Below the pieces are notes generated by a model, which was given only the letters and a program-made list of their open reading frames with translations, had not been told where the DNA came from and searched no databases. DNA of 33,504 bases, from IMG/VR virus record IMGVR_UViG_2695420456_000021; one strand, written 5' to 3'. Positions 319 through 33,504 of the stretch are shown piece by piece. How positions within the stretch are numbered: position 1 is the first letter of the stretch; every line of letters starts with the position of its first letter. The position numbers were made by a program, and so were the translations under genes. The DNA is from a virus (lineage: Duplodnaviria > Heunggongvirae > Uroviricota > Caudoviricetes).

Positions 319-380
319 GAATATTTTTTGGTAAGCGTCAAACATGCGCGTTCTGGTTGTGCTTAGCCGGAACCTGTGCG

Positions 381-413
381 AGCACGATGCCGTTACGTGA
401 AAGGCATCGTGCT
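381..413. repeat. Perfect 11-bp inverted repeat (agcacgatgcc ... ggcatcgtgct) with 11-nt loop in the yegR-attL spacer; function unknown
   Basis: Read directly from sequence; no T-tract follows, so not a canonical intrinsic terminator. Confidence 0.5.
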
Positions 414-475
414 ATGAAGGGAGATTCTATCGATGTGGTCAATGGAAGACGGTGACCAGGGATAGGGCTTATGCA

Positions 476-503
476 TAAAAAATAAGCCCGTGTAAGGGAG
501 ATT
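476..503. repeat. attL core: 28-bp direct repeat taaaaaataagcccgtgtaagggagatt (orphan copy of cyaR 3' end)
   Basis: Identical 28-mer at 31971..31998; flanking bases differ on both sides. Confidence 0.75.
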
Positions 504-6455: not shown

Positions 6456-7586
6456 ATGAAAAAAATAACCAAGAGAGAAAGAGAGAGAGATATTTTACGA
6501 TCCTATTTACATCGTACAGGAAGAGATGTTGTATCTGCAGGGCGCTCTAAGATTAATCCTATTTCAAAAGCATCAAAAATAAATCGTTGGATAAATGCGC
6601 AAATTAAAGATGGATTAAATTGCGAAATAAGGAAAAATAGAGACCTTTTCCTTACTTTACCTAAAAAGATGAACTTTTCAAGTAATTACCATCGTACAAT
6701 GCAGGCCATACAAACGATTAGGCATCTTACGGGGCGGAAGATATTTAATAACCAATGTTATCGTCTTTGTTTTGTTGACTTTTCGAAGATTGAATATATT
6801 TCTGCATCTGCCGCATTGGTATTGACCGCGGAATTATCAAAATGGGATGATTCGGTAAGGCAACGCATTCGCCCAAAAGTGAAAACGTGGAATAAAAACA
6901 TACTCTCTCAATTTGATGAGTTGGGTTTTTTTGACTTATTTAGAAATAAAGATAGTTTTGAGCTTGAAAAAGAAAAGGAACCAAGTAATATCCGTTTTGT
7001 TAAGTATATGAAAGGACATTTACATGATGATGAAAAAACTCAGCATTTAAAAAAAGAAATAAAGCGTATTGTGGGAGAAGACCTTGGTAAATGGACTTTC
7101 CTATACAGTGGTTTGTCCGAAGCTATTACAAATGTTGTTCATCATGCTTATCCAGATAATAAAGGCTATCATGAGCATGATAAAAAATGGTATTTAACTG
7201 CTTCATATGATAGTTCAAGTAGAATAATAAAAGTAGTGTTTTATGATCAAGGTATTACAATTCCTGGGTCTTTGCCGGAATCTAAACTCCATGAAAAGGT
7301 TTTAAATTACCTTTCGAAGTTACCGCTTGCAGAACGAAAAAGAGATGAACAATTGTTAAAGGCTGCAGTTGAAATCAAACGTTCTAGTACGGGGGAAGAG
7401 GATCGGGGTAAAGGCTTGCAGGACTTGTTGGAGTTCATAAAGCAACGTGGTGAAGGTTATCTTTCAATTATGAGTGGTAAAGGCCTTTACAAATACTCAC
7501 AACATGATAAAAAATCTGAGGTAAAATCAGTAAGCTTCGCTCTGCCTGTTTGTGGTACACTTATAGTATGGAGTACAAAGCTATGA
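6456..7586 (+). CDS. Cargo protein 1 (376 aa): N-terminal STAS-like segment plus C-terminal GHKL/HATPase_c-like ATPase (anti-sigma-factor-kinase-like)
   Basis: RBS aagggggg before ATG. Motifs 'EAITNVVHHAY' (N-box-like), 'YDQGITIPG' (G1-like), 'DRGKGLQDL' (G2-like); N-terminal 'VDFSKIEYISASAALVL' resembles the STAS core. No Walker A. AT-rich. Confidence 0.75.
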   Translation: MKKITKRERERDILRSYLHRTGRDVVSAGRSKINPISKASKINRWINAQIKDGLNCEIRKNRDLFLTLPKKMNFSSNYHRTMQAIQTIRHLTGRKIFNNQCYRLCFVDFSKIEYISASAALVLTAELSKWDDSVRQRIRPKVKTWNKNILSQFDELGFFDLFRNKDSFELEKEKEPSNIRFVKYMKGHLHDDEKTQHLKKEIKRIVGEDLGKWTFLYSGLSEAITNVVHHAYPDNKGYHEHDKKWYLTASYDSSSRIIKVVFYDQGITIPGSLPESKLHEKVLNYLSKLPLAERKRDEQLLKAAVEIKRSSTGEEDRGKGLQDLLEFIKQRGEGYLSIMSGKGLYKYSQHDKKSEVKSVSFALPVCGTLIVWSTKL

Positions 7587-7972
7587 TTACTAGATTGGTT
7601 GCTAGCCTCATGAAAACATTGAAGATTGGTTCAGAGTTCTCGAAAGTTCCCAGAGGCCGCTATCGTACTGACGGGACAGCAAGTGGTGAACGGTTTAGAG
7701 AAGATTTCTTAAGGAAGCGTCTAAGCTTGCTTTCTGCTGGGGAAAAATTGCAGATAGTCATCGACGATGATGTCGAAGGATATGGTTCGTCTTTTTTGGT
7801 GGAGGGCTTTGCGGGCATGGTAAAATATGGATATATGCATGCCAATGAATTATTGTCTAAAATTGAAATTAAATATACTAATCCTGATTTTGATTTCTAT
7901 AAAAAGAAAATAGAACAATATATCAACGAGGCGCAGTTTAATTCGAAACGATATGAGCCAACAGTCGAATAA
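7583..7972 (+). CDS. Cargo protein 2 (129 aa): small STAS-like / DUF4325-like protein
   Basis: ATG 7583 overlaps the gene-1 stop as ATGA; ggag 8-9 nt upstream. Motif 'IVIDDDVEGYGSSFLVEGF'. Track start 7550 lacks an RBS. Confidence 0.65.
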   Translation: MITRLVASLMKTLKIGSEFSKVPRGRYRTDGTASGERFREDFLRKRLSLLSAGEKLQIVIDDDVEGYGSSFLVEGFAGMVKYGYMHANELLSKIEIKYTNPDFDFYKKKIEQYINEAQFNSKRYEPTVE

Positions 7973-8615
7973 TCCGATGTTTATTTTAGGTGAGAGTTCT
8001 GGTGAGTTCTCACCTAGTTTGCTTTTTATCAAGAAGGATAATGAAGAAGGCCTGAGTGCTACTCATGCAGTTAAGGATATTAATACGGTAATTGAAGTAG
8101 CTAGTTCTAATATTGTTGATGCAATACGGCATCCACCTGAAACGCCTATTTTATCGTCATCACTTATTACGGCTCTTATTAGTACTATTTGTGCGGCTAC
8201 TGCCGCATTTGCATATAATAAAGTCCATTGGCGTTCTGTTGTTAAACGGGAGACTAAAACCAAACTCCTGGAGAGTATTTCAGATGTGGTTAATGAGTTG
8301 CGTTCTGATGCTATTAGTTATTGGTTGAAGGGGTATTCAAAAAAGTCGGCGAAGTCTCTCTTAGAAGAGGAAATGAGAATTAAGGCGAGTTTAAATATAA
8401 TAAATTCGACTATAACAATATATGTTCAGCAAGAGTCGCGATGGAAAAGAAAGGATATTGAAGCTCAGTTAAGGGTTTTTCATGACGAACTTTTTGATAT
8501 TATAACAGGTGATGATTTTGAGTCTCAGGCAAGGAAGCAGGATAAGGCAAAGGTTTCTGCTATTTCTACAAAGTGTGTGGCTTTTCGCGTTTTATTAAAT
8601 ACCATCAAGTTTTAA
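7953..8615 (+). CDS. Cargo protein 3 (220 aa): predicted single-pass membrane protein, candidate effector
   Basis: Start overlaps the gene-2 3' end by 20 nt; hydrophobic stretch 'PILSSSLITALISTICAATAAFAY' (about residues 65-88); charged C-terminal region. Alternative start ATG 7977. Confidence 0.6.
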   Translation: MSQQSNNPMFILGESSGEFSPSLLFIKKDNEEGLSATHAVKDINTVIEVASSNIVDAIRHPPETPILSSSLITALISTICAATAAFAYNKVHWRSVVKRETKTKLLESISDVVNELRSDAISYWLKGYSKKSAKSLLEEEMRIKASLNIINSTITIYVQQESRWKRKDIEAQLRVFHDELFDIITGDDFESQARKQDKAKVSAISTKCVAFRVLLNTIKF

Positions 8616-8747
8616 GATAGCCATGCATGAGTTTGGTGCATGAAAATGCATGAGGTTTTACGAATTATTTTGGCTAAAATCAGCCTGCCCTGACTGGCTA
8701 CGGCAGATATCATGCACCTGCATTAAAACCGCCCCATGAAGCGGGCG

Positions 8748-8766
8748 GGCGAGGCGGGGAAAGCAC
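8748..8766. other. cos site (19-nt cohesive-end sequence ggcgaggcggggaaagcac)
   Basis: Matches the P2 cohesive-end sequence as I recall it; sits between the cargo island and Q as in P2. Confidence 0.6.
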
Positions 8767-20603: not shown

Positions 20604-22853
20604 ATGAGCACAAAATTCAGAACCGTTATCACCACTGCCGGTGCAGCAAAGCTGGCAGCGGCAACCGCGCCGGGAGGGCGGAAGGTCAACATTACCACGA
20701 TGGCCGTCGGGGATGGCGGTGGTAAATTGCCTGTCCCGGATGCCGGACAGACCGGGCTTATCCACGAAGTCTGGCGACATGCGCTGAACAAAATCAGCCA
20801 GGACAAACGAAACAGTAATTATATTATCGCAGAGCTGGTTATTCCGCCGGAGGTGGGCGGTTTCTGGATGCGTGAGCTTGGCCTGTACGATGATGCTGGA
20901 ACGTTAATTGCCGTGGCGAACATGGCCGAAAGTTATAAGCCAGCTCTTGCCGAAGGCTCAGGGCGTTCGCAGACCTGTCGCATGGTCATCATCGTCAGCA
21001 GTGTGGCCTCAGTGGCGCTGACCATTGACACCACAACGGTGATGGCGACGCAGGATTACGTTGATGACAAAATTGCAGAGCATGAACAGTCACGACGTCA
21101 CCCGGACGCCTCGCTGACCGCAAAAGGTTTTACTCAGTTAAGCAATGCGACCAACAGCACGTCTGAAACACTGGCCGCAACGCCGAAAGCGGTTAAGGCC
21201 GCCTATGACCTGGCTAACGGGAAATACACTGCGCAGGATGCCACCACAGCGCGAAAAGGCCTTGTCCAGCTCAGTAGCGCCACCAACAGCACGTCTGAAA
21301 CGCTCGCCGCAACACCAAAAGCGGTAAAGGCAGCATATGACCTTGCTAACGGGAAATACACTGCACAGGACGCCACCACAGCGCGAAAAGGTCTTGTCCA
21401 GCTCAGTAGCGCCACCAACAGCGATTCTGAAACGCTTGCGGCAACGCCAAAGGCGGTAAAGGCAGCATATGACCTCGCTAACGGGAAATATACCGCACAG
21501 GATGCCACCACAGCGCGAAAAGGTCTTGTCCAGCTCAGTAGCGCCACCAACAGTGATTCTGAAACGCTGGCTGCAACACCAAAAGCGGTGAAGTCTGCCT
21601 ATGACAATGCTGAAAAACGTCTTCAGAAAGATCAGAACGGTGCGGATATTCCTGATAAAGGACGCTTCCTGAGTAACATTAATGTTTACAGCAAAGGTGA
21701 AGTGGATAAGAAAAAGGGAATGCGAAAGTATTCGTTTGCAGCCCCTGCAAATGTCGTTGCCGGGAAGTGGTATCCCGTTATCTTTCGCCGTGCTGCCAGC
21801 CTTTCAGGAGAAATGGCATCCCGCGTCGTTATTTCCACTGGTTGTTATAACAGCGATTATGTAATGAATAACTGCGAGTTTAATGGCATGGTTATGCCCG
21901 GAGGCTGGACTGATCGTGGTTCATATGCGGCAGGTTATTTCTGGACGTATCAGACTAATGAGCGTTCAATTCATTCCATTGTTACAAGCCTGAAAGATGA
22001 TGATGTATGTAGTGTTTTTTATGTTGAAGCCAGAGCTTTCCCTGTACAAATTCTTGCAGAGGAAGGGCTAACGGTTATTGTTCCGACAGAGGATTATGTC
22101 GTCGGTCAGACGACATATAAGTGGGGGGCAACTAATCCCGCTACAGAAAGCACGAACGCGCAGGCTATTCTGGATTTTAAAAATGGGCGCGGTTATTACT
22201 GCTCACATCCATTTATTTCCAGCCTTTCAGGAAATGCTGCAACAGCAACAAAGTTAGCGAACGCAAGAAATATTAATGGTGTCAGATTTGATGGCTCTGC
22301 CGATATAAATATTAATACACTGGTTTCCAGAAACCGTGTTACTGCATTAGGTGGGAGCGTAAAGGGGACACCAGGTATTCAGATGTATGAGGCATACAAC
22401 AATGGCTACCCAACAGCCTATGGTAATGTGCTTCATCTCACTGGTGTAACCGCAGTAGGAGAGGGTGAGTTACTTATTGGCTGGAGTGGAACCAGCGGTG
22501 CTCATGCTCCGGCATATATTCGCTCCCGACGAGATACCACAGATGCTAACTGGTCTGGATGGGCGCAACTATATACAACTGCTCATAAACCCTCAGCGGG
22601 AGATGTTGGTGCATACACCAAAGCTGAGTCAGATTCACGTTATGTGAGAGACATGCGGCTGGGCGGTGCATCTACATATAAACCAGCAAATAATGGTATT
22701 ACATGGACGCATCAGGCTCCGTCAGGTTGCGTATATACCGGCATTATTGTTCAGGATACCGGCTCAAACTCTGCCGATAACATTGGTGGCGTATATTACA
22801 GACCGGTGCAGAAATACATTAACGGGACATGGTATAACGTGGCGCAGGTATAA
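20604..22853 (+). CDS. H: Tail fiber protein, P2 H-like (749 aa) with internal tandem repeats and compositionally distinct C-terminal domain
   Basis: ORF track; conserved N-terminus (MSTKFRTVITTAGAAKLAAA...); repeats at about 21109-21600; GC drops after about 21650. Confidence 0.9.
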   Translation: MSTKFRTVITTAGAAKLAAATAPGGRKVNITTMAVGDGGGKLPVPDAGQTGLIHEVWRHALNKISQDKRNSNYIIAELVIPPEVGGFWMRELGLYDDAGTLIAVANMAESYKPALAEGSGRSQTCRMVIIVSSVASVALTIDTTTVMATQDYVDDKIAEHEQSRRHPDASLTAKGFTQLSNATNSTSETLAATPKAVKAAYDLANGKYTAQDATTARKGLVQLSSATNSTSETLAATPKAVKAAYDLANGKYTAQDATTARKGLVQLSSATNSDSETLAATPKAVKAAYDLANGKYTAQDATTARKGLVQLSSATNSDSETLAATPKAVKSAYDNAEKRLQKDQNGADIPDKGRFLSNINVYSKGEVDKKKGMRKYSFAAPANVVAGKWYPVIFRRAASLSGEMASRVVISTGCYNSDYVMNNCEFNGMVMPGGWTDRGSYAAGYFWTYQTNERSIHSIVTSLKDDDVCSVFYVEARAFPVQILAEEGLTVIVPTEDYVVGQTTYKWGATNPATESTNAQAILDFKNGRGYYCSHPFISSLSGNAATATKLANARNINGVRFDGSADININTLVSRNRVTALGGSVKGTPGIQMYEAYNNGYPTAYGNVLHLTGVTAVGEGELLIGWSGTSGAHAPAYIRSRRDTTDANWSGWAQLYTTAHKPSAGDVGAYTKAESDSRYVRDMRLGGASTYKPANNGITWTHQAPSGCVYTGIIVQDTGSNSADNIGGVYYRPVQKYINGTWYNVAQV
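21109..21600 (+). repeat. In-frame tandem repeat, 132-bp unit (44 aa), about 3.7 copies, within tail fiber gene H
   Basis: Unit boundaries at 21241, 21373, 21505; encoded repeat '...SSATNS(T/D)SETLAATPKAVKAAYDLANGKYTAQDATTARKGLVQL'. Confidence 0.85.
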
Positions 22854-23665: not shown

Positions 23666-25009
23666 ATGGCTACTTATGCTTCTTATTTACCAGAATCACA
23701 AATTATCACTTTGTGCAAGGATTTCCCAGCGTTTACTGATCCTGAAAAATTAGATGGATTCATTAATCCAGAACAGTTTGGCGTGTTTTTTCATGAGTGG
23801 ATTCATTTTCTTCACAATATTTCCACAATTAATGGGTTTTCTATTTTTTGCACGCAAAACATCCTGTGGTCTAATTTTCGCTGGGCAATGGACAATCAGG
23901 ATGTATGTCTTGGTTCAAATGACATGGATCCAGCACATATCGAATCAAACAAAAATTTTCTCAGTTACATTCGTTCCAATAGGAGTCTGCATAAATGTAA
24001 CTTACCTTATTATGTAAAAGTAAACGACTTGTATTTTGAGGATGCAATAATCCATGACATGGAGGTTGCTGACGGTAGTGTTATATGTACATCATTAATA
24101 AAGTGTAGAATTTCTCATTCTGAAAACAAATACGATCTAGATTTAGGCGTGCTTGAAATACTTGAATCCGCAGCTTTTATGCTTGAATGTAAGTGTATTA
24201 ATGCGATGAATGGCTTCCCTCAAGAGGCACCCTTTTATCCGTATCATACTATCAAAGGCTTAGCAGCGAAAATTGCTCCGTCATTAAATGATGAAGATAT
24301 TATTTGTTGTATGTTAGCTTCTTTGCAATCTAATAACCCTCCCCAAGTATTATTCAATCTACTACATAAATGTGAATTATTACATTCTGATTGTAGGTAT
24401 GAACATCTAGTGGCGGAGGTGAAAAAACAATTAAGCGAACAAGATCAAATAATAAGCGAGTCACTTAATCAAATAATTCAAATGATTCCTGTTGATGAAC
24501 CGATGGGAAACTTTATCAAGCTTACTCTTAACAGAATAAGTAACAATTTGAACTATAGAAAGCAAAAACCGTTTTTTGAGTTAGATATAATAAAAAAAAT
24601 AGCAGAAAAAACTGAGTTTATGAATGAAGTAATACAGAAATTCGGTGGTTGCACTATCATCCAGGTAAGACATGGAGATGATAATGAACCACAGCGTGAT
24701 ATTATGTATGACTTTTGCTTACCTGAAAATAATGATTCAATTTTATTTGGTTCGAAAATGCTACGCGCTTGTTTTCACTTTATATTTATTCACTTTAAAC
24801 TTTCTGGTGAAATCATGAAGACAGAAGAATTAAATATTTCGCCGCGTAATAAATGCCCATTTTATACTGTTTGCTGTGCATCAATTCGAGCTAATAATAG
24901 TAATATCTGCGCTGAATCCCCTTGGAAATCAATGTCTATTGATGACAACAAAGGTTGTTATTATGCAGCAGCGATTAAAGCTACTAACCCACCAGTTTTG
25001 CCGGATTAA
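23666..25009 (+). CDS. Cargo protein (447 aa) with N-terminal HExxH motif and Cys-rich C-terminal half; possible Zn-dependent hydrolase, function unknown
   Basis: RBS agagga before ATG; 'FFHEWIHFLH' at residues 41-50 (codons about 23792-23806); many Cys pairs; about 32% GC in a sampled line; occupies the P2 Z/fun position. Confidence 0.7.
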   Translation: MATYASYLPESQIITLCKDFPAFTDPEKLDGFINPEQFGVFFHEWIHFLHNISTINGFSIFCTQNILWSNFRWAMDNQDVCLGSNDMDPAHIESNKNFLSYIRSNRSLHKCNLPYYVKVNDLYFEDAIIHDMEVADGSVICTSLIKCRISHSENKYDLDLGVLEILESAAFMLECKCINAMNGFPQEAPFYPYHTIKGLAAKIAPSLNDEDIICCMLASLQSNNPPQVLFNLLHKCELLHSDCRYEHLVAEVKKQLSEQDQIISESLNQIIQMIPVDEPMGNFIKLTLNRISNNLNYRKQKPFFELDIIKKIAEKTEFMNEVIQKFGGCTIIQVRHGDDNEPQRDIMYDFCLPENNDSILFGSKMLRACFHFIFIHFKLSGEIMKTEELNISPRNKCPFYTVCCASIRANNSNICAESPWKSMSIDDNKGCYYAAAIKATNPPVLPD

Positions 25010-31651: not shown

Positions 31652-31870
31652 ATGTTTCATTGTCCTTTATGCCAGCATGCCGCACATGCGCGTACAAGTC
31701 GCTATATCACTGACACGACAAAAGAGCGTTATCACCAGTGCCAGAACGTGAATTGCAGCGCCACGTTCATCACTTATGAGTCGGTACAGCGATACATCGT
31801 AAAGCCGGGAGAAGTCCACGCCGTAAGGCCGCACCCGTTACCGTCAGGGCAGCAAATTATGTGGATGTAA
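31652..31870 (+). CDS. ogr: Zinc-finger late-gene transcriptional activator, Ogr-like (72 aa)
   Basis: Track ORF 31589..31870; start at ATG 31652 (MFHCPLCQHAAH...); CxxC...CxxxxC motif; last gene before attR. Confidence 0.9.
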   Translation: MFHCPLCQHAAHARTSRYITDTTKERYHQCQNVNCSATFITYESVQRYIVKPGEVHAVRPHPLPSGQQIMWM

Positions 31871-31883
31871 TTACAAACAGAAA

Positions 31884-31907
31884 GCCCCTCAGTCGAGGGG
31901 CTTTTTT
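31884..31907 (+). terminator. Intrinsic terminator after ogr (gcccctc-agtc-gaggggc then T6)
   Basis: Perfect 7-bp stem plus T-tract read from sequence. Confidence 0.65.
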
Positions 31908-31912
31908 GTCGA

Positions 31913-31930
31913 TGTGGTCAATGTGTGGAC
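31913..31930 (+). promoter_or_regulatory. Tandem tgtggtca / tgtggac repeats, 11-bp period (putative Int arm-type sites, P arm)
   Basis: Same motif, spacing and orientation as the pair at 592..610. Confidence 0.4.
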
Positions 31931-31970
31931 GTGACCAGAAATAAATCCTTTTATTTCATTGAATTACGCG

Positions 31971-31998
31971 TAAAAAATAAGCCCGTGTAAGGGAGATT
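31971..31998. repeat. attR core: 28-bp direct repeat, also the 3' end (terminator half plus U-tract) of cyaR
   Basis: Identical to 476..503. Confidence 0.75.
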
Positions 31999-32058
31999 AC
32001 ACAGGCTAAGGAGGTGGTTCCTGGTACAGCTAGCATTTTATGGGTTATGTTTTTCAGC
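31972..32058 (-). ncRNA. cyaR: CyaR (RyeE) small regulatory RNA, 87 nt, intact
   Basis: Reverse complement matches the E. coli CyaR sequence as I recall it (GCTGAAAAACATAACCCATAAAATGCTAGC ... CCTTACACGGGCTTATTTTTT); TGTGA half-site about 40 bp upstream, consistent with its CRP-dependent promoter. Confidence 0.85.
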
Positions 32059-32142
32059 GAAACGGATGATAACCTTAATAAATACAGCTGTATGTGATCG
32101 GTTTCTAAGAATTTTCCATCCGGGAAAAATAATCGAAATTAA

Positions 32143-33504
32143 TCACTTACCGTGGGGATTACGCGTGGTTTCCCCGGAGAAATTACGCATCAGCAGCGCG
32201 TAATTGAGCTCAAGATCCTGCGGGACCGGGAGCCACACAGTATAACCATCGCCTGGTGCTATCGGCATAGCTTCGCCTTTGGCGTTTTCCATGTGCTCAA
32301 GGGTAAAATTAATGTTGCCTTGCGGCGTCATCAGCTCAAGGCTGTCGCCAACGGAGAATTTATTTTTCACCGCTACCGCCGCGAGGTCCCCCTTGCGCTC
32401 ACCGGTAAACTCACCAACAAACTGCTGGCGGTCAGAAACTGAATAACCGTATTCGTAGTTCTGATAATCGTCGTGAGTATGACGACGCAGGAAACCTTCG
32501 GTATAGCCACGATGCGCCAGACCTTCCAGAGTTTCCAGCAGGCTGGTATCGAACGGTTTTCCCGCAGCGGCGTCATCGATAGCTTTGCGGTAAACCTGTG
32601 CGGTGCGTGCACAATAGTAGAAAGATTTGGTACGACCTTCGATTTTCAGCGAATGCACGCCCATTTTGGTCAGGCGTTCTACATGGGCGATGGCGCGCAG
32701 ATCTTTCGAGTTCATGATGTAAGTGCCGTGCTCATCTTCAAACGCGGTCATATACTCGCCCGGACGCTGGGCCTCTTCGATCATAAACACTTTGTCGGTT
32801 GGTGCGCCGATACCCAGCGTCGGCTCAACATTTTGCACCGGAATCGGCTCGTACTTGTGTACGATGTTGCCAACATCATCTTCTTTCCCTTCCTGGACGT
32901 TGTACTCCCAGCGGCAGGCGTTGGTGCAGGTGCCCTGGTTCGGGTCGCGCTTGTTGATATAGCCAGAGAGCAGGCAGCGACCGGAGTAGGCCATGCACAG
33001 CGCGCCGTGAACGAAGATCTCGATCTCCATATCCGGCACCTGATTGCGGATCTCTTCAATCTCTTCCAGCGACAGCTCGCGAGAGAGGATCACGCGGGTC
33101 AGGCCCATTTGCTGCCAGAATTTCACCGTCGCCCAGTTCACGGCGTTAGCCTGCACCGAAAGGTGGATCGGCATTTCAGGGAAGTGCTCACGCACCAGCA
33201 TAATCAGCCCTGGATCGGACATAATCAGCGCATCCGGCCCCATTTCCACCACCGGTTTCAGGTCACGGATAAAGGTTTTCAGCTTGGCGTTGTGCGGTGC
33301 AATGTTGACCACGACATAAAACTTTTTCCCCAGCGCGTGGGCTTCATTGATGCCGAGCTGAAGATTTTCGTGGTTGAATTCGTTGTTGCGCACACGCAGG
33401 GAATAACGCGGCTGGCCCGCATAAACAGCATCTGCGCCATAAGCGAAAGCGTAACGCATATTTTTCAGCGTTCCCGCCGGGGAAAGGAGTTCCGGTTTAA
33501 ACAT
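32143..33504 (-). CDS. yegQ: Peptidase U32-family protein YegQ (453 aa), host gene; start codon at the window edge
   Basis: ORF track; full-length ORF; position next to cyaR as in E. coli. Confidence 0.85.
   Translation of the reverse strand: MFKPELLSPAGTLKNMRYAFAYGADAVYAGQPRYSLRVRNNEFNHENLQLGINEAHALGKKFYVVVNIAPHNAKLKTFIRDLKPVVEMGPDALIMSDPGLIMLVREHFPEMPIHLSVQANAVNWATVKFWQQMGLTRVILSRELSLEEIEEIRNQVPDMEIEIFVHGALCMAYSGRCLLSGYINKRDPNQGTCTNACRWEYNVQEGKEDDVGNIVHKYEPIPVQNVEPTLGIGAPTDKVFMIEEAQRPGEYMTAFEDEHGTYIMNSKDLRAIAHVERLTKMGVHSLKIEGRTKSFYYCARTAQVYRKAIDDAAAGKPFDTSLLETLEGLAHRGYTEGFLRRHTHDDYQNYEYGYSVSDRQQFVGEFTGERKGDLAAVAVKNKFSVGDSLELMTPQGNINFTLEHMENAKGEAMPIAPGDGYTVWLPVPQDLELNYALLMRNFSGETTRNPHGK

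Follow-up and report, generated by a model that had tools for sequence, protein, structure and literature searches.

What is the origin of the short stretch of DNA that separates the small lipoprotein gene yegR from the P2-like prophages integrated beside it in Escherichia coli? The question is raised by the IMG/VR record IMGVR_UViG_2695420456_000021 (33,504 nucleotides, referred to here in full as the window), in which a P2-like prophage lies between yegR and the small RNA (sRNA) gene cyaR, and in which the host flank between yegR and the attL core resembles the P arm at the phage's own right end. An earlier note, made from the sequence alone, took this flank to be the scar of an earlier P2-like prophage whose attR had been entered by the present phage, a reading that is borne out here by homology to the P arm and by a degenerate attL on the far side of yegR. 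We propose, with a probability of about 0.8, that positions 319–476 (+ strand) are the decayed attR arm (P arm) of an ancient P2-type element. Its insertion at the core within the cyaR terminator would predate the diversification of E. coli, and nearly all of it would since have been deleted. This kind of object is well known and the process calls for no new mechanism. A description of the flank as a P2 fossil was not found in the literature searched, and prior notice of the arm-like sequence in the 1992 paper on locI, the classical preferred attachment site of P2, is possible.

Results and discussion

The host flank is homologous to the P arm of P2-type phages

The prophage between the two cores of the window is complete and P2-like. 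Its attL core (477–503, + strand) is 27/27 identical to its 27-bp attR core (31972–31998, + strand), and this att core is the terminator of cyaR (31975–32060, − strand; Rfam RF00112, 100.7 bits). At the right end, ogr (31652–31870, + strand, placed from the sequence and the P2 record) is followed on the same strand by three features transferred from the P2 record: the ogr/F-operon terminator (31881–31904), the integrase arm-type site annotated as ‘Int, P arm’ (31909–31936) and the integration host factor (IHF) site of the P arm (31940–31973). Positions 430–458 of the host flank (+ strand) copy the phage P-arm site at 31909–31937, the first 15 positions being identical and the remainder degenerate. 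The shared 15-mer tcgatgtggtcaatg (= TCGATGTGGTCAATG) is found at 430–444 and 31909–31923 with no other copy in the window, even when one mismatch is allowed, and 0 copies were expected by chance (100 shuffles). Behind it, gacggtgaccag at 447–458 is to be compared with ‘gacgtgaccag’ at 31928–31938. Both pairs had been pointed out in the earlier note, where the right-end members were placed at 31908–31922 and 31926–31936; all of its strings are real, but since the core occupies 477–503 the flank runs over 319–476, not 319–475.

In the window repeat search, ungapped comparison gave 71% identity between 416–464 and 31895–31943 and 94% between 469–503 and 31964–31998. When the cores were left out, flank and phage P arm gave a local alignment score of 38, as against 14.8 ± 2.1 for shuffled sequences (z = 10.9, 0/500 shuffles), and the similarity is thus far beyond chance. 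In the P2 RefSeq record the matching block is annotated as the binding site ‘Int, P arm’ (features 24293–24320), and the copy at 430–458, with its 15/15 identity and ‘gtgaccag’ tail, is a putative fossil integrase arm-type site. The family consensus of such arm-type repeats is tgTGGaCa (PMC3448106). The resident P arm carries two, TGTGGTCA at 31913–31920 and TGTGGACG at 31924–31931; the first fossil repeat (434–441) is intact and identical to the phage P1 repeat, while the second, GGAAGACG (445–452), has decayed to about 5/8.

Compared with a functional P2 attR or attP arm, in which integrase (Int) arm sites P1 and P2, an IHF site and the core follow one another, the fossil keeps the order, the strand, the first repeat and the core (477–503 = 31972–31998). 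Two direct tgTGGaCa repeats are not present in it, the second being degenerate, and no IHF site lies between repeats and core in the window allele, where that region has been lost through a 16–17-nt deletion. The spacing is 16 nt shorter, and upstream of the fossil there is neither ogr nor its terminator. The rest of the fossil arm (459–476, + strand) was delimited by alignment with the phage and with the flank of Escherichia sp. MOD1-EC7003 (locus L019); next to the core it reads ‘ttatgcat’ (469–476) as against ‘ttacgcgt’ in the phage.

The flank is ancient and shared across E. coli

The flank was found in 5372 of 5426 complete E. coli genomes at 90–100% identity. A P2-type attL junction is present in 817 of the 5426 (~15%). 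In the empty-site strain 55989 the order is yegR, flank, core, cyaR. The flank is therefore peculiar neither to one strain nor to lysogens. The earlier note had regarded the occurrence of the same sequence in strains that never carried a P2-like element at this locus as fatal to its own reading; the flank is indeed present at empty sites such as that of 55989, but this is no refutation because the scar predates the diversification of E. coli, so that the objection was mis-specified and the reading stands.

Less decayed versions of the arm were sought in L019 and among 25 distinct E. coli flank alleles; the latter come from 78 IMG/VR ‘proviruses’ whose start coincides with yegR or lies slightly upstream of it. 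The similarity of the L019 flank (TCGATGTGGTCAATGGAAGATGGCTACCAGGGATAAATCCTTCTGTTTCATTGA) to the phage P arm continues across the IHF-site region (56 aligned columns, z = 17.9), where the flank reads GGGATAAATCCTTCTGTTTCATTGA against AAATAAATCCTTTTATTTCATTGA in the phage. Five of the 25 E. coli alleles retain 12 nt of the IHF region (GGGATCAATCCGTCTC...), and the common allele, which is that of the window, lacks 16–17 nt of it. All host copies share a second repeat (GGAAGA) that is not found in the phage, which argues for one founding event. Allele alignment, together with blastn and tblastn searches, placed a deletion junction of the window-type allele at 319–322; at this point B2-type E. coli and L019 carry about 170 bases more.

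Two further features of these alleles were recorded. Next to the core (469–476), allele a9 (2/78 IMG/VR loci) has the phage-like TTACGCGT and not the usual host TTATGCAT; the two are two CpG transitions apart, and the a9 state is either ancestral or due to exchange with a prophage. The attL cores in alleles a7, a13, a14, a21 and a24 have other right halves (AAGGGCGTTT, AAGGGATATT, ACCCGCCCTT), so that variant-core P2-like phages share the site, with the crossover left of those positions. Small differences in four GTDB representatives of E. coli and Shigella flexneri (L008, L010, L016 and L017) were ignored; these records have many frameshifts in yegQ, yegS and yegR and look like error-prone assemblies turned ‘species’.

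A degenerate attL lies at the ancestral core position beside yegS

One genome per species was scanned by exact match to the core with its cyaR side, which returned 13 loci. Being based on an exact 27-mer, the scan misses species with at least one base change in the cyaR terminator (Salmonella, Citrobacter and probably E. albertii); Salmonella, Citrobacter koseri and an Escherichia-like contig (L129) were recovered via YegS instead. In C. koseri (L128), yegS is followed by 97 nt, core, cyaR and yegQ, and in two Kluyvera loci (L009, L011) yegS lies about 75–80 nt from the core. In all three nothing lies between, and yegR is absent. In Escherichia about 800 bp separate yegS from the core.

An unbiased scan upstream of the true core of Escherichia returned a single best core-like site, directly after the yegS leader. 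In 55989 this site matches the core at 18/27 positions and the runner-up at 15/27; the figures for L019 are 21/27 and 14/27. A direct repeat of the core is thus found at both ends of the island, and the island is absent from the orthologous empty sites of C. koseri and Kluyvera. Multiple alignment showed the yegS leader (B arm) to be orthologous in C. koseri, Salmonella, L129, E. coli and L019, and the position of the fossil core to be exactly that of the C. koseri core. This fossil core falls outside the window, some 300–330 nt upstream of position 1, and is followed by about 30 nt resembling the start of the resident phage's P′ arm. The latter (504–617, + strand; the Cox region, with P2 record annotation moved by alignment), which has arm-type repeats TGTGGACA at 592–599 and 603–610, was the reference for this comparison; in L019 the fossil P′ arm aligned over 58 columns (z = 13.3, 0/500 shuffles). 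An extension of the fossil P′ arm past about 75 nt or into int was rejected, as local alignments there were no better than dinucleotide shuffles; a suggestive CCTGAAGG match in a global alignment was not upheld by them.

The contig L129 (Logan SRR10749232; YegS 90% identical) holds at this site a relic of the same kind, but younger. Beside yegS it carries a core that matches at 22/27 and a P′ stub of 64 nt that is almost perfect, together 83/91 identical to the window attL; cdtABC comes directly after (positions 1–2617 of the contig). The cdt genes are documented cargo of the A–Q (‘TO’) moron region of P2-like phages (PMC6823313). L129 is accordingly a degraded P2-like prophage of which only the toxin cargo was kept; its organism is probably E. 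albertii.

Contents of the island

Read from yegS to cyaR, the island consists of the degenerate attL core with its ~30 nt of P′ arm, an end of an IS1-family insertion sequence (IS), yegR, 60–70 nt of cos-proximal DNA, a hairpin, the P-arm site, remains of the IHF site and the core. Degenerate attL (attL*), cargo, cos-proximal DNA, P arm and core stand in the order of a P2 prophage, from which the segments int-to-A and cos-to-ogr are missing. The phage-derived parts are the P′ stub, the cos-proximal block and the P arm; recognisable phage genes were not found in the island.

The cos-proximal block occupies 323–381 (+ strand) and corresponds to the conserved region just upstream of cos at the right end of P2-family phages. 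It was first matched by BLAST to phage 186 (30517–30565, E = 0.5), within the last 110–60 nt before cos. The region just before cos is conserved across P2-family phages. An nhmmer profile was built from 10 P2-family cosR-proximal regions, including that of the resident prophage (8590–8747, followed by the 19-nt cohesive end at 8748–8766, + strand), and 138 kb of host DNA was searched, with E values at Z = 10 Mb. The profile matched the B2-type alleles collinearly over 72 nt (E = 7e-4) and hit the flank in every allele searched; the sole other match (E = 2.5) was unrelated and elsewhere in locus L030. The 15 nt that are present only in B2-type alleles and L019, and that lay outside the BLAST query that had prompted the search, continue the collinear match at 12/15. 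The best pairwise identities were 38/48 with 186 and 37/47 with Midge. Profile positions from 38 or 51 to 109 of ~160 were matched, and the last ~50 nt and the 19-nt cos are absent from the flank.

In B2-type E. coli the P′ stub is immediately followed by a degenerate piece of IS1-family DNA, 91 nt long, which shares 74% identity with the end of such an element, the IS in phage Rac-SA53, and stops at the inverted repeat. It lies at 1727–1815 of locus L006 and recurs in L001, L032 and L034. Apart from this IS1-family end, the spacer between attL* and yegR showed no similarity to phages.

The only gene inside the island is yegR (1–318, + strand), a small lipoprotein ORFan recognised as an open reading frame (ORF) and by Pfam family PF27694/YegR. 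In other enterobacteria, yegR and a second gene, orf110, form a two-gene cassette at another chromosomal locus, where the closest homologs of YegR outside Escherichia (76–82% identical amino acids) are encoded; the surroundings of more distant homologs are unrelated, being either chromosomal or IS-flanked. About 120 nt from the 5′ end of orf110 survive in B2-type E. coli and in L019 and, with the first part of the cos-proximal block, make up their additional bases at 319–322; the window allele has lost this stub. In L019 yegR itself is reduced to an inverted 22-codon 5′ fragment (302–367) and is therefore dispensable in that lineage; a yegR knockout has shown no phenotype in chemostats (PMC3708739).

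We considered yegR as documented phage cargo and rejected it, since matches in phage records are host-flank contamination and Pfam shows only the YegR family. All 80 listed IMG/VR yegR loci (out of 107 confirmed by tblastn) are E. coli host flank at 96–100% identity, most of them from proviruses starting at yegR. In the listed contigs (L047–L126) the start usually falls on the yegR start codon, and in the others yegR lies within ~2.3 kb of a contig end. For the same reason the match to phrog_21109 is not independent evidence; provirus boundaries drawn through the fossil probably explain why YegR has a PHROG of its own. Either yegR was phage cargo of the A–Q moron region or it was inserted later by IS activity.

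Weighing the favoured explanation

In sum, the flank shares ancestry with a P2-type P arm, is old and widely shared, and has as its partner a degenerate attL where the ancestral core lay; the scar is a cryptic prophage remnant bounded by att repeats. We suggest that a P2-family phage would have entered the cyaR terminator in the ancestor of E. coli and the L019 lineage, and that all pieces may have been left by one complete phage and not by a smaller P2-type integrative element. Two large deletions, int-to-A and cos-to-ogr, would then have removed most of it, at least one of them perhaps IS-mediated. The distal core would have drifted to 18–21/27, with the cyaR-side core held by selection on the sRNA terminator. 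The right-hand core is perfect because it is the cyaR terminator, and being intact it is still attB (locI), where the resident prophage integrated; modern P2-like phages would thus be using the surviving fossil attR core as their attB. The scar itself would now be functionless.

Several observations weigh against this account. No phage gene survives in the island, yegR being the only gene inside, and yegR occurs in no genuine phage genome (tblastn of 50,697 phage records and the IMG/VR scan); an Enterobacter yegR homolog is IS-flanked, so an independent arrival of the gene is possible. The cos-proximal match is short, with E = 0.11 for the window allele. In E. coli alone the P′ signal of attL* is weak (z = 2.7, 11/500 shuffles), and the likeness to the P′ arm ceases to be significant ~75 nt from the fossil core. 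The hairpin at 381–413 is unexplained, and a 31-nt invariant block over the fossil arm site is not expected of a purely neutral fossil.

Alternative explanations

The alternative that survives best, while still unlikely, is that the block has been kept by a present function, as an auxiliary Int-binding site in attB or attL, a host protein-binding site or a yegR 3′ untranslated region. The longest invariant run in the flank covers the block, amounting to 31 nt (GATTCTATCGATGTGGTCAATGGAAGACGGT, window 424–454) across the 25 E. coli alleles and 24 nt once L019 is added (P = 0.007 and P = 0.0015, respectively, if the variable sites are scattered at random); the first arm repeat does not differ from that of the phage, and the RNA fold of the flank is unusually stable (z = −3.55). 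Against this, the run also spans non-phage bases, the spacing to the core is 16 nt off that of attP, and the sample consists of 25 alleles from lysogens with strong haplotype structure. An inverted repeat GGTCA/TGACC is broken in K-12-type alleles, and a 13-codon ORF over the block has no stop codon in K-12. The invariant run may reflect chance, haplotype structure or some residual function. A working P arm is unlikely, because it would require a second repeat and an IHF site, which are gone, and because the run is not confined to phage bases. A narrower variant, to which we give slightly less credence than to present function at large, is that the intact arm repeat within 424–454 may still be a binding site for a P2-type integrase; locI would then be an attB that has a single arm site.

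A second alternative, which we consider very unlikely, is that the flank is refreshed strain by strain through imprecise excision of modern prophages. The site is occupied in 15% of genomes, allele a9 has phage-like TTACGCGT by the core, and K-12 and strain E308 show deletions at the junction, all of which would fit recurrent footprints. All host alleles, including that of a separate Escherichia species, nevertheless share derived non-phage states (GGAAGA and the breakpoints), and the orthology of the flank across 5372 genomes points to one old event followed by decay.

More improbable still is the reverse direction of transfer, in which P2-type phages took their P arm from the host flank. Imprecise excision can move attL-side host DNA into a phage, and the flank is universal in E. 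coli. The block of ogr terminator and arm site is, however, 97–100% identical in P2-like phages whose similarity ends before the core, and related versions of it occur in phages of Klebsiella, Enterobacter and Yersinia and in a Kluyvera prophage. The phage arm repeats fit both the P′ repeats and the family consensus, whereas the second host repeat is degenerate; the outgroup empty sites have no flank; and a one-sided capture cannot explain the P′-arm remnant at the other end of the island.

Chance or low-complexity likeness between two AT-rich intergenic stretches has a negligible probability: clear similarity in the window allele is confined to 29 nt and the second arm repeat is poor, but the 15-mer is unique to the two sites, both alignment scores (z = 10.9 and 17.9) lie beyond all 500 shuffles, order, strand and position relative to the core are collinear, and less decayed alleles lengthen the match. 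Equally negligible is the identity of the flank with the ogrK/yegZ remnant of K-12, which shares its locus and phage family, as K-12 has the flank and a later remnant side by side.

The K-12 remnant and other stages of decay

Barreiro and Haggard-Ljungquist reportedly described, in 1992 (J Bacteriol), a cryptic P2 remnant (ogrK, yegZ/D′, attR) at locI of K-12. The order that we find in K-12 is yegR, flank, truncated attL core, D′, ogrK, full P arm, core and cyaR. The flank, which the earlier note compared to this remnant, is therefore not the same object, the remnant being separate and to the right of it. This order shows the ogrK/D′ remnant to be what is left of a later prophage, which inserted on the right side of the flank and afterwards lost everything from within its attL core into gene D. 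Neither ogr nor D sequence was found in the flank, and the window carries a full prophage. The two relics share the attachment site, the phage family and the form of a deletion-reduced prophage with an intact attR by cyaR. The K-12 remnant is young and strain-restricted, with ogr intact and a P arm ~98% identical to that of the resident phage; the scar is much older, is present in nearly all E. coli and a sister species, and has no phage gene while both its ends are recognisable.

A present-day example of remnant formation is provided by E. coli E308 (L031, 2501–2640), in which the flank is cut after ~51 nt and fused to a P2-like prophage truncated in the baseplate gene J. The deletion runs from flank position ~370 into prophage gene J.

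Decayed integrative elements are known at tRNA, tmRNA and sRNA genes that are bounded by degenerate direct repeats, of which the gene-proximal att stays intact and is reused. The island behaves likewise, with a perfect repeat in the cyaR terminator, a distal repeat decayed to 18–21/27 and reuse of the site by later phages. Unlike such islands, the scar retains arm-type integrase sites and cos-proximal DNA, and the family of the vanished element can for this reason be named. A further parallel is with degraded P2-like prophages reduced to their A–Q moron cargo, such as the cdt-V prophages of E. coli O157 (PMC6823313). L129 is a case of this sort, and the yegR island shares its layout; the phage origin of the cdt cargo is documented in that work, whereas no phage copy of yegR was found.

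Different islands fill the site in Salmonella, Enterobacter and Kluyvera. In Salmonella enterica (CP019409.1, L127) the yegS–cyaR interval of ~2.85 kb holds an SseK/NleB-family effector, a CesT-family chaperone and a 111-amino-acid ORF; its B arm is orthologous to that of E. coli, and no recognisable core-like repeat was found by yegS (best 15/27). Enterobacter hormaechei B56 (L007, 519–2420) has a 1.9-kb island between the cyaR core and yegS with two ORFs (321 and 199 amino acids, membrane-protein-like by sequence). The island has no integrase, and a direct repeat that matches the core at 23/27 marks the end towards yegS. Unrelated inserts were seen at the same site in further Kluyvera and Enterobacter loci (L012, L013 and L014).

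The hairpin and the 10-mer at 417–426

The hairpin at 381–413 (+ strand; 11-bp stem, 11-nt loop) was correctly located in the earlier note, where it was said to take the place of the ogr terminator hairpin; this latter part is unsupported. The sequence, fold and a terminator scan reject it as a terminator, a T-run being absent on both strands and no terminator-like site being found in 1–700. Homology to the ogr terminator is likewise rejected: there is no sequence similarity, and the gap to the 15-mer is 16 nt and not ~5 nt. Alignment with the right end of the resident phage revealed no phage counterpart.

The string ‘aagggagatt’ is present at 417–426, as had been noted, but its interpretation as a partial core copy finds no support. 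The 10-mer varies by host allele (AAGGAGGATT in K-12, AAGGGGGATT in others and AAGGGGGAAT in the sister lineage), and its counterpart in the alignment is not the core but the 3′ half and T-tract of the ogr terminator (GAGGGGCTTTT); both the ungapped repeat family and the alignment place this weak likeness at 415–429 (+ strand). A third core copy was rejected on account of this polymorphism and because the preceding 17 nt match the core at 5/17 only (by inspection). The 13-codon ORF mentioned above (MKGDSIDVVNGRR, window 412–453) begins at the foot of the hairpin and spans the invariant block; with its stop codon missing in K-12-type alleles it is probably not a gene.

Other features of the window

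The resident prophage encodes int at 583–1596 (− strand; from the ORF and the P2 record), and the conserved host gene yegQ (trhP) lies on its far side at 32143–33504 (− strand). The A–Q moron region just before cos (6456–8615) holds three uncharacterised ORFs of 376, 140 and 220 amino acids. A Pfam match was obtained for the middle one only (DUF4325, STAS-like) and PADLOC matched 0/3; defence cargo of a new sort is possible. In the late region (21150–21605) there is a tandem repeat of 132 nt (44 codons) in 3.5 copies at 90% identity.

Conclusions

The proposed history gives an origin to the yegS–cyaR spacer of nearly every E. coli and places the orphan lipoprotein gene yegR within the bounds of an ancient P2-type insertion. 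The classical locI would itself be the surviving attR of that insertion. A decay series is found at one site, from the full prophage through the E308 truncation, the K-12 ogrK remnant and the cdtABC remnant to the yegR fossil, and the cyaR terminator emerges as a recurrent landing pad with lineage-specific cargo across the Enterobacteriaceae. Provirus callers and PHROGs count yegR as phage-borne because prophage boundaries are routinely cut through the fossil. The finding also raises the question whether the conserved arm half-site still affects P2 integration. Should it bind integrase, every attL at locI would be a crippled attP-like site, and the arm site could add to the strong preference of P2 for locI, or change excision efficiency and the stability of lysogens.

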